A stretch of 64,000 bases of DNA. Origin: Alphaproteobacteria bacterium. GTDB lineage: Bacteria; Pseudomonadota; Alphaproteobacteria; GCA-016699305. Made by a program: the position numbers and the translations under genes. The stretch spans positions 389,647 to 453,646 of the forward strand of contig CP064970.1 of the NCBI GenBank assembly GCA_016699305.1, read 5' to 3'. How positions within the stretch are numbered: position 1 is the stretch's first letter; each line of letters opens with the position of its first letter. Shown one piece after another: positions 11,548 to 33,184 of the stretch. The notes beneath the pieces are model-generated. The model was not told the DNA's origin, ran no database searches, and saw only the letters and a program-made list of their open reading frames with translations.

Positions 11548-13110
11548 TCACGCACCCTGCAAAAGGCGACGCAGCAGATCCACATCCTGGCGCAGGTCCT
11601 TATCCGTCTGGCACAGCTCCTCCACCTTACGCACGGCGTGAATGACCGTGGTGTGGTCGCGACCACCGAAACGACGCCCGATATCCGGCAGAGAGCGCGA
11701 GGTCAGCTGCTTGGCCAGATACATCGCCACCTGACGCGGACGAGCCACCGCGCGCTCACGGCGCGTGGAGCACATCTCGGCCAGGCGCATATTGTAATGC
11801 TCGGCCACGCGACGCTGGATATCCTCGACCGTCAAGGTGCGGTCATGGGTGCGCAGAATGTCGTGCAGCACCTCGCCCACCATATCGAGGGAGATGGTCT
11901 GCCCCACGAGGTCGCCATGCGCCGTCAAACGGTTCAACGCGCCCTCTAATTCACGCACATTCGACGTGATGCGATGCGCCAGGAACTCCAACACATTGGC
12001 GGGAACGCCGCGCCGCGACTGCTCGGCCTTTGACTGCAAGATACCCAAGCGCAGCTCATAGCTGGTGGGATGAATATCCGCGCACAGCCCCCAGCCTAGA
12101 CGCGAACGCAAGCGTTCCTCGATTTGGTCCAGTTCTCGCGGAGATTTATCTGCGGAAACGACGATCTGTCGGTTCTCATCCACCAAGGCGTTAAAAGTAT
12201 GAAAGAACTCTTCCTGTGTGGAATCTTTGCCGCTGATGAACTGCACATCATCGATCATCAGCACATCGACCGAGCGAAACTCCTCTTTGAACGCCATCGT
12301 GTCTTTAAAGCGCAACGCCCGTACGAACTGATACATAAATTTTTCAGCCGACATATAGATCACGCGCCGACCGTTGTTCTGGCCACGAATATGCCAGGCA
12401 ATGGCATGCATCAAATGCGTCTTGCCCAGCCCCACGCCTCCATACAGAAACAGGGGGTTAAACGACACAGAGGATGTTTCGGCCACGCGCCGCGCGGCGG
12501 CATGGGCCAATTCATTGGGCTTACCCACAACGAATTGGTCAAAGGTAAAGCGGGCATCCAGCGGCGCGCATAAATCATCGCGCCAGTCTTTCATGGCCGA
12601 GCTTACCGCCTTGGCAGGCAGACCGTTCACAGGCAACGCCGTCCCGATCAGCGGCATGGCCGTGCGGTCCGAATTTGCGGGAAGGTCGCCGATGGCACTT
12701 GTCTGGGTCTGACCAACCACAACGGGCTGTCCCGCAGATGCAACCTCGACCGATGGCAAAACGCCAAAGCGGATGTCTTCCAGCTCGTATCCCGCCTCGC
12801 GCCAAGTGGCCGAGATCATGGCACCGTAATGCGTCTCCACCCAATCGCGCATGAATCGCGTGGGCAGGCTGATGACCACCGTGCCGTCTTGGCCGCAGCG
12901 CTCACAGCGCATGCTTTCTAGCCAGCGGCGGAAATTTTCAGTGCCGACTTTTTTGCGCAACAAGGCGCGCACACTTAGCCACAACGCTTCGGTCGAAGGG
13001 GCGGAATCGGAATCGGCATTTGAAAGACTATGCGCAGCCGAGCGGCTGACCGCGGATGGGTGAATGTTGTCGGTGTGAATGGCCCGTGCGCCCATGCCCC
13101 CTACCCCCAT
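11548..13110 (-). CDS. dnaA: chromosomal replication initiator protein DnaA
   Basis: AAA+ Walker A GVGLGKTHLMHAIA, box VII/sensor region and C-terminal DNA-binding helix-turn-helix (RQVAMYLAKQLTSRSLPDIGRRFGGRDHTTVIHA). Confidence 0.95.
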   Translation of the reverse strand: MGVGGMGARAIHTDNIHPSAVSRSAAHSLSNADSDSAPSTEALWLSVRALLRKKVGTENFRRWLESMRCERCGQDGTVVISLPTRFMRDWVETHYGAMISATWREAGYELEDIRFGVLPSVEVASAGQPVVVGQTQTSAIGDLPANSDRTAMPLIGTALPVNGLPAKAVSSAMKDWRDDLCAPLDARFTFDQFVVGKPNELAHAAARRVAETSSVSFNPLFLYGGVGLGKTHLMHAIAWHIRGQNNGRRVIYMSAEKFMYQFVRALRFKDTMAFKEEFRSVDVLMIDDVQFISGKDSTQEEFFHTFNALVDENRQIVVSADKSPRELDQIEERLRSRLGWGLCADIHPTSYELRLGILQSKAEQSRRGVPANVLEFLAHRITSNVRELEGALNRLTAHGDLVGQTISLDMVGEVLHDILRTHDRTLTVEDIQRRVAEHYNMRLAEMCSTRRERAVARPRQVAMYLAKQLTSRSLPDIGRRFGGRDHTTVIHAVRKVEELCQTDKDLRQDVDLLRRLLQGA

Positions 13111-17940: not shown

Positions 17941-18816
17941 ATGGCTAATCTCAAGGACTTACGCAATCGCATCGCCAGCGTGCGCGCGACGTGCAAGATC
18001 ACCTCGGCCATGAAAATGGTCGCGGCCAGCAAATTGCGACGCGCTCAAACGCAGGCCGAGAACGCGCGGCCTTATGCCGAGTCCTTGCAGGATATGCTGG
18101 CCTCGGTCTCTCAAGGCATCCCGGCGCATGACGATTCTTTGCCGGCCTGGGCGCGTGCCAGCGGCAATAAAAGTCCGGCACTGGTGGTTCTGACGTCGGA
18201 TCGCGGCCTGTGCGGCGGCTTCAACGCCTCGGTCGTGCGCGATGTGCGGCACAGGGTTGATGAGTTGGAGAAACAGGGAACGCCGCCCATCCTGATCTGC
18301 ATCGGGCGGCGTGGGCGCGACATGCTCAAACGGACCCACAGCAAATATATCGTCCACAGCATGGATTTTGGCCGCACGCCCTCTTATGCCGTGGCGCAGG
18401 ATTTGGCGGAAACCCTGGTTAAGCTGTTCACCCAAAGCAAACTGGACAGCTGCGATCTGATGTTCAACGCCTTCAAAAACGCCTTGCAGCAGGAGCTGCG
18501 CATGCGACGTATCATGCCCGCGCCCATGGACCCGCCCGAAGAGGCCGCCGCCAAGCCGACGGTCTGGCGTATCTATGAGCCGGGGCGAAACGAGATATTG
18601 GCCGGCCTGTTGCCCTTGAACATGAAGACGCAAATTTATCTGGCGATGGTCGAAAGCATGGCAGGCGAACATGCCGCGCGCATGACCGCTATGGACAGCG
18701 CCACACGCAATGCCAGCGAGATGATTGATCGCTTAAACCTGCGTTACAACCGGCTGCGCCAGGCGGCCATCACCACGGAGATGATCGAGATCGTCTCCGG
18801 CTCTGAGGCGATGTAG
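17941..18816 (+). CDS. atpG: F0F1 ATP synthase subunit gamma
   Basis: MANLKDLRNRIASVRATCKITSAMKMVAASKLRRAQ... and C-terminal ITTEMIEIVSGSEA. Confidence 0.95.
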   Translation: MANLKDLRNRIASVRATCKITSAMKMVAASKLRRAQTQAENARPYAESLQDMLASVSQGIPAHDDSLPAWARASGNKSPALVVLTSDRGLCGGFNASVVRDVRHRVDELEKQGTPPILICIGRRGRDMLKRTHSKYIVHSMDFGRTPSYAVAQDLAETLVKLFTQSKLDSCDLMFNAFKNALQQELRMRRIMPAPMDPPEEAAAKPTVWRIYEPGRNEILAGLLPLNMKTQIYLAMVESMAGEHAARMTAMDSATRNASEMIDRLNLRYNRLRQAAITTEMIEIVSGSEAM

Positions 18817-18819
18817 AGC

Positions 18820-21092
<2,273 letters not shown>

Positions 21093-21163: not shown

Positions 21164-24100
21164 TTACTTCCAGTTCGCCGCAATCACCGTGGCCAAAGAG
21201 TCCTGATAATGTTGCGGCAGGGTGTTCTCATTCGCCGCAGGCGGCGCGAATGCGGCCATGGCATTGACCAAATTCTCGACCTGGTTCGCCAGCAAAGCCT
21301 TGCCGTCCGAAGTCTTGAATTGCTCAATCTGGGCCACCGCTCCGCTGCCATACCAGCCACTGATGGTCATGCAATCTTCCGTTCCGATGATGCTGACCTC
21401 GAGATCGCTGTTCAGCTTTCTGAACCAGATTTGGTCGCTGGCGATACCTGAACCAAACGACATCATGTCGCTATTGCCGGCAGTGCTGTCATATTCCTGG
21501 ATGGAGTCAACATACGAGCCACGAGCCATCACATAGGTGTCGTTGCCCTGCCCGCCAATCAGCCAATCACGCCCTGTGCCACCATCCAGCGTGTCATTGC
21601 CCGCATCGCCGTTGAGTGTATCATTGCCATCCTGGCCTTGCAGCAGATCGTCTCCATAGCCGCCGTTTAGAATATCGGCACCCACGCCGCCCGCCAGTCT
21701 GTCGTTGCCATCTTCGCCATTGATTTGATCATCGCCGCCATCGCCGCCCAGCGAGTCATGACCCGAGCGGCCATAGACGTAATCATTGCCGTCGCCGCCA
21801 TTGATGGTGTCCGCCGTGGCATAGCCAGTTAGAACGTTATCTTCCGTTGTTCCTGCCAAAACCTTGGCCTTCACCGCATCGACTCTCCAGACGGTTCCAT
21901 CGGCAAATTTGATATTCTCGATCACACTGTTCGTTGCGCCGTCCTGAGTGAAATAGCTCGACACATTCAGCGTATCATCTGTGCCTACGAGGCTGATCAC
22001 CAGGTTGCCATTGTCGTTCCTTAGCATCGTCTGTGCAGCGGAGATTCCCGCACCCAACAGAACCGTATCGGCATTCACGCCCACGGCGTCAACGTCACCG
22101 TTGTTGATCGTGTCTTGCCCGCTTCCAAAGCCAAACAGATAAGTATCGGCACCGTTGCCCCCACTCATCTGATCATCACCTGTACCACCGTCGAGCGTAT
22201 CGGCTCCGTCTCCCCCGTAGAGATTATCGCGACCTTCCATACCGCGCAGCACATCATTCCCCGCGCCGCCATCCAGTGTATCGTCGCCAAAACCCGCACC
22301 GCCGGTCAGCGTATCGTTACCGCCATCACCGTATAAACAGTCATTGCCGTAACCGCCGTCGATGATGTCATTGCCGCCATGCGCATAGATCGTATCATCG
22401 CCAGAGGCCCCGGCCAGGGAATCAGCCGTCTCAAATCCTATCAGAGTGTCACTGGAGTTGGTGGCGACCGTCACCTTGGCCTTGATCGCCGCCACATTCC
22501 ACACCGTGCCATCGGCGAATCTGACGTTCTCGACGGCATGAGGCGTCGCTCCATCCTGACTGAAATAGTTTTGAACCGTCAGTTTGTCATTGGTGCCGAT
22601 GATCGATAAGGCCAAATTATCCCACTCGCGAGAGGCCACCACATCCGCGACCGCCACGCCGGCAGAAAACTGGATGGTATCGGCTTTTACGCCCAACGCA
22701 TCCACGTCGTAATTATTGATCGAATCCTGTCCGCTGCCACGCCCGAACAGATAGACATCCGCGCCATCGCCTCCCGACAACACATCATTGCCCAAGCCAC
22801 CATTAAGAGTGTCATTGCCGCCATAGCCGTATAGCGAGTCGTCACCCACCCCACCCAGCATGCTTTCCGACGCCGCCGTGCCCGCCTTGTACATGGCAGC
22901 AGGAGCGGCGCTCAATCTGCTCTTGACCGCGGCATAGTCCCATACCGTACCGTTGGCAAAGCCAATAAGCTCCACCGCGTTGGCTGTCGTGCCGTCCTGC
23001 GAGAAATAGCTTTGAACCGTCAGCCTGTCATTGGTGCCGATGATTGACAGAACCAGATCATCGCCCAAACGGGAAGCAGCCACATCCGCCGGCACGATTC
23101 CTGCCTGAAAAATGATGGCGTCCCTGGACTGGCCGAGAGCATCATTGTCATTATTGCTGATGGTATCCTGACCGCTGCCGCGCCCGAACATATAGCTATC
23201 AGCCCCATCACCCCCGCCAAGCGTGTCATTGCCTAGACCACCATAGATGCGGTCATTGCCCGATTCCCCATAGAGGGTATCGTCACCCTCATCGCCGTAG
23301 ATCGCATCATCATCGGCGCCGCCATATATATAATCATTGCCCGCGCCGCCCAATAACCCGTCATAGCCAGCGCCGCCACTGATGTTGTCAGTGCCGTCAC
23401 TGCCGCTGATCGTGTCAGATCCATCATAGCCATTGATCTGGTCATCGCCCGCGCCGCCATTGATGTTGTCCGCGCTGGCATAGCCGTACAGCGTGTCTTT
23501 TTCATTCGTGCCCAGCAAGGTCTTGGCCTTCATTGTGGCCACGTCCCATACCGTGCCGTTAGCAAAGCCAATAAGCTCCACCGCGTTGGCTGTCGTGCCG
23601 TCCTGCGAGAAATAGCTTTGAACCGTCAATCTGTCATTGGTGCCGATGATCGACAGAACCAAACTATCGCCCAGACGGGAAACAGCCACATCCGCCGGCA
23701 CGATTCCTGCCTGAAAAATGATGGCGTCCCTGGACTGGCCGAGAGCATCATTGTCATTATTGCTGATGGTATCCTGACCGCTGCCGCGCCCGAACATATA
23801 GCTATCAGCCCCATCACCCCCGCTAAGAGTGTCATTGCCTAGACCGCCATACAGACGATCATTGCCCGATTCCCCATAGAGGGTATCGTTACCCCCGTCG
23901 CCGTAGATCGCATCATCACCAGCACCACCATTGAGGCTGTCATTGCCCGCGCCGCCGAGCATCCCGTCATGGCCATCCTCACCATAGAGGACATCGGCCC
24001 CATCATCGCCATACAGCGAATCGCTGCCGCCATTGCCTTGGATTGTGTCCCCACCCGCGCCGCCACGAATAGTCTCTGCACTGACAGAGCCATACAGCGA

Positions 24101-30880: not shown

Positions 30881-31203
30881 GCCACCGGGCTGGCGGTCAT
30901 CAAGTTCAGCTTGGTAAACGCCTCGACCTTCCCCAGCAGAGCGGCGTTTTGGCTCATGGCGATGGCAAGGTCGGGCAGTTGTCCATAGCCGCGCATCTGC
31001 GGCAGCAGCAATGTGCGCGGGTTCAGGGCGACGGTGCCGCCATATACCGTGTTCACATTGTCATAGGCAAACCACGCATCCACCACCTTGCCCGTCGCGC
31101 CAGTCGTGCGTGTAAAGCTGGATTCCTTGGTCACCAAGTTTCCGGCAATCGTATAATTGCTCGCAGTGGCGTTCAGGTTAATGCTGGCAATGCCGCTTTC
31201 CAT
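30781..31203 (-). pseudogene. 5'-truncated copy of RTX-gene segment (residues ~426-515) fused to conserved tail
   Basis: MESGIASINLNATASNYTIAGNLVTKESSFTRTTGATGKVVDAWFAYDNVNTVY... near-identical to big protein, then diverges to ...NDDMVNDNTPQAHTNVASCLIVNEFTCRLAA*; in-frame stop directly upstream. Confidence 0.55.
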
Positions 31204-31267
31204 TTTGGTTTCAAATCGCTAGACTGGCGCGCTGTTTCGTCCCTGCATAAGGTTCGCGTCAAGGCCC

Positions 31268-33184
31268 ATGTTCACCTGGTCATCACTGCTGCCTACGCGC
31301 CGCGCCCTGATCATCTCGCATGACACGCTGATGATGATGTTGGCTTTGGTGGCCGCTTTGTATGCTCGCGTGGGCGGCGATGCCTTTGGTCGATATGCCG
31401 ACGCCTTGACCTTGGGCCTGCCCTTACTGGCTTTGTTGTCCGCTTTTGTCTTTTTAGCCTTTGGTCTGCATCGAGGATTATGGCGCTATGTTTCGACCGC
31501 TGAGCTAGTGGTGATCGTCAAGGCCGTGACCGTGGTTGTGGCCGCCTTCTTGGCCGCGATGTTCGCCCTGACGCGGCTTGAGATTCTGCCTCGTTCCGTT
31601 CCTTTCATCCATTGGTTCATGGCCCTGGTCCTGCTGGGCGGTCCGCGTCTTGTGTACCGTATGAGCCGCGACCGACGCCGCGACCGAGACATGGCCCCAG
31701 CCGCCGAGCGCATCTGCGTGCTTTTGGTGGGCGCGGGGGACGAGACGGCGCAGTTTCTGCATGCCCTGGCCACCCGCCCCGGGGCACCCTGGCAAGTGGT
31801 GGGCATCTTGGACGACAAGGGCCGCCGCACCGGTCAAACCATTTTGGGCCAAAAGGTGCTGGGCACATTGGATGAAATGGACGAGGTGATCGCCCGTTTA
31901 CGCGCAAACAATGTGGTGGTGCGTAAATTGGTGCTGACACGTCCCGGCGAGTCCGGAGATAGGATACGCAAACTATTCGATCGCGCGGATCGCCTGGGCC
32001 TGTCGCTGGCCCGTCTGCCGCCGGTCACCGAATTGCGCGAGGCCGAGAATCATCCGGGCCAAGGCCTCACCCTGCCCTCGATCTCGGTCGAAGATTTGCT
32101 GGGCCGCCCGCATGTCAGCTTGGATAGCACGGTTCTGAGCCAGATGATTTCGGGACAAAGGGTGCTGGTAACCGGCGCGGGCGGCACCATCGGGGGTGAA
32201 CTGGTGCGCCAGATCGCCGCCTTGTCCCCTGCCCGGCTGATCTTGGTCGATCATAGCGAGTTTAATCTGTACTCCATCGAGACGGAATTGCGCGCGCAAG
32301 CCCATCTGCCTCTGCCCGCTTCGGCATGGCGCGGAGTGCTGGGCGATGTGCGCGATGGCGATGCGATGATGCGCCTGTTCGAACAAGAGCGGCCCGATCT
32401 GGTCTTTCACGCCGCCGCGCTCAAGCATCTGCCGATCGTCGAATCCTTTCCCTGTCAAGGCGCGTTGACCAATGCCGTGGGAACGCATCATGTGGCGCAG
32501 GCAGCGGCTGCATGCGGCTCTAAGGCGATGGTCCTTATCTCGACCGACAAGGCCGTGAAACCTTCCAGCGTCATGGGGGCGACCAAGCGTTTAGCAGAAA
32601 TGCTCTGCCAGGCCCGCGACGCCCAAAGCGCTCCCGGCAGCACACGCTTTCTCACAGTCCGCTTTGGAAACGTGCTGGGGTCCAGCGGCTCGGTCGTTCC
32701 CCTATTCCAGCGCCAATTGGCCCAGGGGCAACCGCTGACCGTGACGCATCCCGAGATGCGCCGCTATTTCATGACCGTGCGCGAAGCGGTGGAATTGGTC
32801 CTGCACGCATCGGCCTTTGGCTCGGCCCAAGAAAGTGTGCGTGGTACGGTCTTTGTGTTGGATATGGGCGAGCCGGTGCGTATCCTGGATTTAGCACGCC
32901 AGATGATCCGCCTGGCCAATCGGCAGCCCGACGATCCAAACGCCATTATCTTTACCGGAACCCGTCCGGGCGAGAAGCTGAACGAAGAATTGTTCGACCC
33001 TGCCGAATCTCCGCGTAAGGTTGCCGAAGGCCTTATGGCCGCGACCCCGCCCTTGCGTCCCTTGAACGAGATGGAACGCCTGGTATCGCAGATTGAGCTT
33101 GCCGCCCATACGGGCGACGATGAGATGGTACGACATCTGGTTTTCGAGGCGTTAGAAGGCAAACAGGCGCAAGGTGCGACTTAG
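31268..33184 (+). CDS. polysaccharide biosynthesis protein, CapD/WbpM/PglF-like membrane nucleotide-sugar 4,6-dehydratase
   Basis: N-terminal TM helices; Rossmann motif VLVTGAGGTIGGEL; ...FHAAALKHLPIVE...; start codon uncertain. Confidence 0.8.
   Translation: MFTWSSLLPTRRALIISHDTLMMMLALVAALYARVGGDAFGRYADALTLGLPLLALLSAFVFLAFGLHRGLWRYVSTAELVVIVKAVTVVVAAFLAAMFALTRLEILPRSVPFIHWFMALVLLGGPRLVYRMSRDRRRDRDMAPAAERICVLLVGAGDETAQFLHALATRPGAPWQVVGILDDKGRRTGQTILGQKVLGTLDEMDEVIARLRANNVVVRKLVLTRPGESGDRIRKLFDRADRLGLSLARLPPVTELREAENHPGQGLTLPSISVEDLLGRPHVSLDSTVLSQMISGQRVLVTGAGGTIGGELVRQIAALSPARLILVDHSEFNLYSIETELRAQAHLPLPASAWRGVLGDVRDGDAMMRLFEQERPDLVFHAAALKHLPIVESFPCQGALTNAVGTHHVAQAAAACGSKAMVLISTDKAVKPSSVMGATKRLAEMLCQARDAQSAPGSTRFLTVRFGNVLGSSGSVVPLFQRQLAQGQPLTVTHPEMRRYFMTVREAVELVLHASAFGSAQESVRGTVFVLDMGEPVRILDLARQMIRLANRQPDDPNAIIFTGTRPGEKLNEELFDPAESPRKVAEGLMAATPPLRPLNEMERLVSQIELAAHTGDDEMVRHLVFEALEGKQAQGAT

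Follow-up and report, generated by a model that had tools for sequence, protein, structure and literature searches.

RTX gene and its modules

The DNA analyzed here is a window of 64,000 nucleotides (nt) from a metagenome-assembled genome (MAG) of Alphaproteobacteria bacterium, and all gene coordinates given below are positions in this window. It carries a gene for a large RTX protein, in which two neighboring repeat modules (M2 and M3) are nearly identical in their C-terminal parts and strongly diverged in their N-terminal parts, a mosaic that probably arose by gene conversion. The RTX gene is a single open reading frame (ORF) on the minus strand (21164-26788) that specifies 1874 amino acids (aa) when counted from the first ATG. 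In the corresponding NCBI record (QQR69453.1; locus tag IPI58_01895; 2,060,775-bp MAG contig), translation starts at Met82 and the protein has 1793 aa, and because this start gives a shorter protein, an exact look-up with the 1874-aa product returned no match; one with the protein P0005 gave none either.

Pfam recognizes 26 stretches of RTX nonapeptides (PF00353; E=1.4e-101) and six HCBP_related domains (PF06594; E=6.7e-74) in this protein, which therefore has six modules, the number given in the original prediction made from the letters of this DNA. As in other RTX exoproteins, tandem calcium-binding nonapeptides of the form GGxGxDxxx lie in the C-terminal half, and they are organized as repeated modules, each a beta-roll run followed by a capping segment. 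The borders of the modules were set by the anchor F-A-D/N-G-T-V-W, the conserved end of each HCBP_related segment, and the anchors are spaced at 202, 202, 147, and 204 aa. From the N terminus to the C terminus, the observed order is a hydrophobic head, the self-processing module (SPM), then a linker, the six RTX blocks, and the C-terminal tail. Its position, along with the similar tails of homologues P0002 and P0015, makes this tail the presumed region of the type I secretion signal. Pfam assigns no family to the N-terminal head, to the linker, or to the small ORFs upstream of the gene. The features of the gene are as follows.

21164..26788, minus strand: full ORF, FrpC-like RTX protein; 1874 aa maximum, 1793 aa in NCBI
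25385..25879, minus strand: SPM, aa 304-468; phmmer match to structure 6SJW (SPM of FrpC), E=5.8e-44; preceded by Ser303
24152..24757, minus strand: module M1, aa 678-879, 202 codons; RTX nonapeptides plus HCBP_related cap
23546..24151, minus strand: module M2, aa 880-1081, 202 codons; from anchor spacing and codon alignment
22940..23545, minus strand: module M3, aa 1082-1283, 202 codons; offset from M2 by exactly 606 bp
22499..22939, minus strand: module M4, aa 1284-1430, 147 codons; N-terminal RTX part is short, C-terminal part 64% identical to M2/M3
21887..22498, minus strand: module M5, aa 1431-1634, 204 codons; from codon alignment
21275..21886, minus strand: module M6, aa 1635-1838, 204 codons; final RTX block plus cap, with the best stretch of the NCBIfam RTX_toxin model at aa 1646-1846
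21167..21274, minus strand: C-terminal tail, aa 1839-1874; presumed type I secretion signal region

By sequence alignment, M3 matches the RTX domain of the Bordetella pertussis toxin CyaA (7USL; E=4e-45) and, over module residues 59-198, the crystallized CyaA block V together with the structure that caps its C terminus (5CVW; E=1e-15). Because of the alignment to capped block V, each module of about 200 aa is predicted to be a beta-roll with its own cap and, hence, a self-contained, autonomous, calcium-driven folding unit. The likeness to CyaA blocks I to V lies in the RTX block with its own C-terminal cap, which is the HCBP_related segment in the present protein. In contrast, the blocks of CyaA are all mutually diverged and include no homogenized pair, and CyaA has an adenylate cyclase domain and an acylated pore-forming domain but no SPM.

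Near-identity between M2 and M3 is confined to their C-terminal parts

Modules M2 and M3 are adjacent, each consists of 202 codons, and they repeat in frame with a period of exactly 606 bp, as previously predicted and as confirmed by the anchor spacing. They thus form tandem copies with a unit length that is a multiple of three, one of the properties expected of copy-number-variable repeats. Another such property, high identity over the entire unit, is absent. The repeat had been placed at 22990-24200, which is the correct region with borders about 50 bp off those of M3 and M2 (22940-24151), and the two units had been described as almost identical at the DNA level. This description fails for the unit as a whole, where identity is 496/606 (81.8%), and applies only to the last 124 codons (372 of 606 bp), where it is 94.6%.

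Codon alignment across all six modules locates the change in identity within the unit. In codons 1 to 78, M2 and M3 are 61.5% identical in nucleotide sequence, and the N-terminal parts of the two modules are no nearer to each other than to those of M5 or M6 (the range for other pairs is 30 to 62%, with M3 and M6 at 62.4%). In codons 79 to 202, M2 and M3 reach the 94.6% given above, in comparison to 48 to 64% for all other pairs of modules. At a lag of 606, identity is 93 to 98% (100-bp windows) over only about 400 bp and 50 to 68% elsewhere; compared base by base, the stretch of high identity extends over approximately 22937-23355 versus 23543-23961. The homogenized parts are as follows.

23546..23917, minus strand: homogenized tract, M2 copy, codons 79-202; last RTX nonapeptides plus HCBP_related cap; shares 94.6% identity with the M3 copy
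22940..23311, minus strand: homogenized tract, M3 copy, codons 79-202; partner of the M2 copy
23077..23217, minus strand: 141-nt perfect core, M3 copy, equivalent to 23683-23823 in M2; longest exact run

Differences are unevenly distributed within the homogenized tract. There are none among the 138 nt of codons 111 to 156 and 20 among the remaining 234 nt (about 8.5%; P=4e-6). When the 110 differences between M2 and M3 were permuted 100,000 times, the longest run never exceeded 77 nt, so the repeat, with its exact run of 141 nt, is not due to chance (P<1e-5). Among the differing codons of the tract, 12 are synonymous and 6 are nonsynonymous. The edge of the tract at the module end (3', after GTVW) is sharp. 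Tandem Repeats Finder, which handles periods of up to 500, reported the 27-nt RTX period as its sole period and for this reason missed the 606-bp repeat.

A contig assembled independently from the short reads of a different sample (L001; Logan SRR14932530) is the only relative recovered at about 95% nucleotide identity to the window, as measured over the region that they share. At all 26 of the sites in codons 61 to 110 at which M2 and M3 differ, this contig carries the M2 state, indicating that the differences between the modules are real and older than the split between the two strains. The match ends at M2 codon 130, within the perfect core, and the next 27 nt of the contig match nothing in the window; the contig may be broken by assembly or chimeric at this point, or the junction may be genuine.

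Gene conversion as the probable origin of the mosaic

Near-identity that extends to synonymous sites and that is flanked, within the same units, by anciently diverged sequence is the pattern of a gene conversion tract, and it is the pattern found in M2 and M3. We therefore regard it as probable that the C-terminal parts of M2 and M3 have been gene-converted within an FrpC-like RTX gene, leaving a direct repeat that would serve as a substrate for unequal recombination. Under this explanation, M2 and M3 would be old paralogous modules that had already diverged when their C-terminal 124 codons were homogenized by nonreciprocal homologous recombination between the adjacent copies, and conversion is the most likely cause of the mosaic that is observed. 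Because the 141-nt core is perfect inside a tract that is otherwise about 8.5% diverged, more than one conversion event is probable; the arrangement suggests either several events or the patchy repair of a single heteroduplex.

Several points weigh against this explanation. The collections searched contain no second intact allele of the gene that would display the direction or timing of conversion or a change in copy number. Toward its 5' end, the tract becomes patchy, with 70% identity in codons 61 to 78, and its limits are therefore approximate. Identity, above all that of the perfect core, could have been raised artificially by short-read polishing over the paralogous modules. Finally, mismatch repair would suppress recombination at 94.6% identity, such that the true instability of the repeat may be low.

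The third of these points, taken further, yields the alternative that fares best, although we consider it unlikely: that the mosaic is an assembly or polishing artifact, with reads misassigned between paralogous modules having homogenized the consensus of a long-read metagenome assembly or with the copy number being wrong. The sequence does come from a MAG (2.06-Mb contig), the perfection of the core is suspicious, and a Logan contig of run SRR11673981, the probable source run, equals the window apart from two single-base indels, which we read as the mark of noisy long-read data. However, the reading frame is unbroken across 5.6 kb, the 20 differences that remain in the tract are skewed to synonymous changes, the M2 sequence is matched as far as codon 130 by the independent assembly described above, and homologues deposited as isolate genomes show the same pattern.

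Somewhat less credible is the view that homologous recombination (e.g., through transformation) brought the tract in from a different allele or strain, which would have made M3 chimeric. The locus is clearly recombinogenic, with fragments of SPM and linker at 92 to 98% identity and low-G+C cassettes upstream, but the sequence nearest to the C-terminal part of M3 is the adjacent M2 of the same gene, and no foreign donor occurred in any collection searched.

Recent tandem duplication of the complete 606-bp unit, followed by ordinary divergence, would account for the exact period and for the 202 codons in both modules, and complete modules are indeed 100% identical in other members of the family, such as that of Azospirillum brasilense. 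Such a duplication predicts 606 contiguous near-identical bases at a lag of 606, yet only about 372 to 419 were found, which disfavors both whole-unit duplication and unequal crossover as the source of the present pattern. The first 78 codons are, moreover, no more alike than those of M3 and M6, and divergence cannot jump from about 5% to about 40% at a sharp boundary within a single unit. With identity distributed as a mosaic, we reject this origin as very improbable.

Purifying selection on the cap region alone, without recombination, is hardly tenable: the conserved part comprises the structurally important HCBP_related cap and the last nonapeptides, but identity reaches synonymous positions, including the whole of the 141-nt exact run, and the same cap in M1, M4, M5, and M6 is just 48 to 64% identical as DNA and 37 to 65% identical as protein, so constraint at the protein level is not the explanation and was rejected.

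Consequences for module number

If gene conversion did produce the homogenized pair, the resulting 0.37-kb direct repeats, spaced at 606 bp, may recombine unequally. An event in register would mean the gain or loss of precisely one block of 202 aa and would preserve the frame; because M6 and the presumed secretion signal in the C-terminal tail would stay intact, the product is expected to be secretable. In-frame gain and loss of 202-codon modules is thus plausible for this gene, as judged from the geometry of the repeat and from the behavior of the family.

Copy-number change without disruption of the frame was part of the original prediction, and the geometry for it, along with the precedents in homologues described below, stands. 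The degree of identity and the proposed slipped-strand mechanism do not. Slipped-strand mispairing operates on short repeats, and long direct repeats such as those in the RTX gene change in number through unequal homologous recombination or template switching; slipped-strand mispairing was rejected as the main mechanism. Because the effective homology is only about 0.37 kb at 94.6% identity, instability should also be lower than had been implied.

No second intact allele of the RTX gene was present in the protein collection, the species-representative genomes, the JGI metagenomes, or the plasmids. Megablast of the gene against plasmids gave no match, scans of genome and metagenome contigs with the linker and M1 region recovered only relatives that are 37 to 39% identical, the search for homologues with the portion from M3 to the C terminus gave nothing above 52% identity, and tblastn of a Ralstonia homologue against plasmids found no orthologues. 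The only further fragments (P0276/L005 and P0277/L006) originate from what appears to be the source sample.

Evidence for changes in module number therefore comes from relatives, sampled as 240 retrieved proteins that, together with the window protein, make 241. Of these 241 proteins, 49 (about 20%) contain internal repeats with identities of 90% or more across 100 aa, mostly with periods of about 200 aa; a Neisseria homologue (P0225), for example, has an internal period of 197 aa at 95% identity. Two alleles from A. brasilense (WP_082413734 and QCO08942; 1894 and 1767 aa), each on a contig of about 3.0 Mb, align without a single mismatch, and their difference lies in one module of 127 aa. In Glaciimonas, a pair of alleles (WP_323518823 and WP_323506181; 1222 aa and 1002 aa) shows one mismatch and is set apart by one module of 220 aa, although these records are contigs of 180 to 262 kb, apparently draft, in which a repeat-unique-repeat loop could have collapsed. 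In the Glaciimonas module pair, only a 106-aa C-terminal part is identical and the N-terminal parts are divergent, which is the same mosaic as in M2 and M3. The A. brasilense and Glaciimonas proteins share with the window protein the architecture of SPM, RTX, and HCBP_related segments with near-identical tandem modules. They differ from it in that their repeats are 100% identical, as opposed to 94.6% in M2 and M3, and the A. brasilense homologue has 7 to 8 module copies, as opposed to six.

Variation in the number of RTX repeat blocks has been reported for frpC-like genes (PMC3034196; PMC5472700; both reviews), in comparison to which the RTX gene of the window is known in one intact allele. 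A more distant parallel is rtxA of Legionella pneumophila, which is reported to have long intragenic in-frame tandem repeats that differ between strains (PMC2257941, PMC2639597). The likeness consists of in-frame repeats of hundreds of bases in a large type I-secreted RTX protein; the difference is that the Legionella repeats are adhesin-like and present in many copies, whereas the gene described here has a single, partly homogenized pair.

Since homogenized RTX blocks and variation in block number are already known and frequent in FrpC-like proteins, the tandem repeat itself matters little. It has a practical side, in that annotators and assemblers should expect an RTX gene of this kind to break or collapse in short-read assemblies, as where the L001 match stops inside M2, and the count of six modules, coming from a MAG, is provisional. 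The fragments of orphan toxin heads upstream of the gene and the replacement of the canonical Asp-Pro by Ser-Pro at the start of the SPM look more interesting than the repeat.

An FrpC-like SPM with a Ser-Pro junction

The alignment of the SPM to the FrpC structure extends over 165 residues, and precomputed Pfam annotation marks relatives of the RTX protein with PF26745, the family of this module. With an SPM placed between the N-terminal head and the RTX region, the layout is that of FrpC-like clip-and-link proteins, and the gene product is, by its predicted domains, an FrpC-like RTX exoprotein that is new to this family. Its order of variable head, SPM, linker, and RTX blocks of about 200 aa is also found in FrpC and FrpA from Neisseria meningitidis and in ApxIVA from Actinobacillus pleuropneumoniae. 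Calcium-dependent autocleavage and Asp-Lys cross-linking are biochemical properties that define the clip-and-link class. Unlike in these species, the gene resides in an uncultured alphaproteobacterium, its hydrophobic, Gly/Ala-rich N-terminal head is unrelated to that of FrpC, and it has no FrpD-like partner.

A scissile Asp-Pro, the hallmark of the SPM start in clip-and-link proteins, is missing. In FrpC, the side chain of the Asp before the SPM proline forms an aspartic anhydride during cleavage; in the window protein, a Ser occupies this position (...EQGS-PLVLDLDGDG; aa 303-304; 25877-25882), and the observation extends to the upstream ORF at 28362-29519. This substitution is common in the family, since the junction reads D-P in 53, S-P in 50, and A-P in 12 of the sampled SPM homologues, and the large subgroup of SPMs without Asp-Pro may either not be cleaved or use a different chemistry.

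Genes for an ABC transporter, a membrane fusion protein, or a TolC-like protein were absent from the ORFs scanned in the 64-kb window. The type I secretion genes may be unlinked to the RTX gene, as is reported for meningococci (PMC3034196), where they are likewise not adjacent.

N-terminal head and upstream cassette array

The head of the RTX protein (aa ~82-300) has hydrophobic Gly/Ala-rich segments at aa 157-176 and 204-249 (window 26042-26320). When the head served as the query, word-based and full HMMER searches alike returned only reads of the organism itself and one weak SPM-RTX relative (P0279; 35% identity). The length and composition of the hydrophobic stretch are suggestive of a membrane-inserting, pore-forming toxin domain. 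Among homologues, the heads that precede the SPM include SLT, GH24 lysozyme, M23 peptidase, lipase, and RHS/HINT-associated domains. Two Glaciimonas proteins (P0065 and P0245) have bodies of SPM, linker, and RTX region with 19 mismatches in 1078 aa and wholly different heads upstream of the pre-SPM region, indicating that head swapping occurs in this family.

Upstream of the RTX gene (i.e., at higher coordinates), an array of gene fragments on the minus strand (27100-31210) has a G+C content of 35 to 48%, compared to 56 to 62% in the surrounding DNA. Its parts, all on the minus strand, are as follows.

28362-29519, minus strand: 385-aa ORF, SLT lytic transglycosylase head plus truncated SPM; SPM DNA at 28445-28877
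30781-31203, minus strand: fragment of 140 aa next to capD, made up of the SPM end and linker; 92% identical to 25218-25532
27121-27474 and 30360-30704, minus strand: two diverged paralogous small ORFs with common 5' ends, from sequence comparison
27549, 30248, and 30779, minus strand: 98-nt junction element in three copies, from sequence comparison
27892-28338 and 29565-30242, minus strand: two ORFs of 148 and 225 aa on either side of the SLT-SPM fragment; no known family, each with an N-terminal membrane anchor or signal-like segment

The 433-bp SPM copies at 25477-25909 and 28445-28877 lie 2.97 kb apart and are 97.9% identical. The two ORFs that flank the SLT-SPM fragment are candidates for envelope-located immunity proteins, given their N-terminal segments. 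In the relative L001 (1063-2874), the gene beside capD begins at the truncated point MESGIASINL... that it shares with the 140-aa fragment of the window (30781-31323) and continues unbroken through the linker, M1, and M2. Because the gene of L001 runs on uninterrupted at this point, about 5.7 kb (the cassettes plus a new head) appear to have been inserted in the window strain relative to the strain of L001.

In its layout, the upstream array looks like the orphan toxin/immunity cassettes known from polymorphic toxin loci, except that the cassettes would be for N-terminal heads and not C-terminal. We tentatively consider, as a possibility that is on balance doubtful, that the whole locus (~21.2-31.2 kb) is a polymorphic toxin system (type I secretion/SPM kind) driven by recombination, in which M2 and M3 would be one of several sets of direct repeats. 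If so, deletion between the SPM copies would exchange the N-terminal head by joining the SLT peptidoglycan-hydrolase head from upstream onto the SPM-RTX body, the RTX body could become longer or shorter in steps of 202 aa, release would rely on the noncanonical Ser-Pro SPM, and the locus would be a reverse-polarity counterpart of the orphan-cassette loci of Rhs/CDI systems. A literature search for a link between SPM or clip-and-link proteins and bacterial antagonism or competition returned nothing relevant. Taken together, an SPM-bearing RTX protein with a membrane-active-looking head, the Ser-Pro junction, and the orphan heads upstream suggest that the FrpC architecture serves as an exchangeable chassis for toxin delivery in environmental bacteria.

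Genomic neighborhood

Other genes in the window include atpG, a formate/nitrite transporter gene, atpD, dsbD, a capD-like gene, pgm, and pnp. The formate/nitrite transporter gene (18820-19644) lies on the plus strand between the genes for the gamma (17941-18816) and beta (19641-21092) subunits of ATP synthase (17941-21092 overall), with junctions that are tight or overlapping, and such an interruption of the atp operon is unusual. The dnaA gene is situated at 11548-13110 on the minus strand, about 8 kb from the RTX locus, and for this reason the window is probably near the chromosomal origin of replication.

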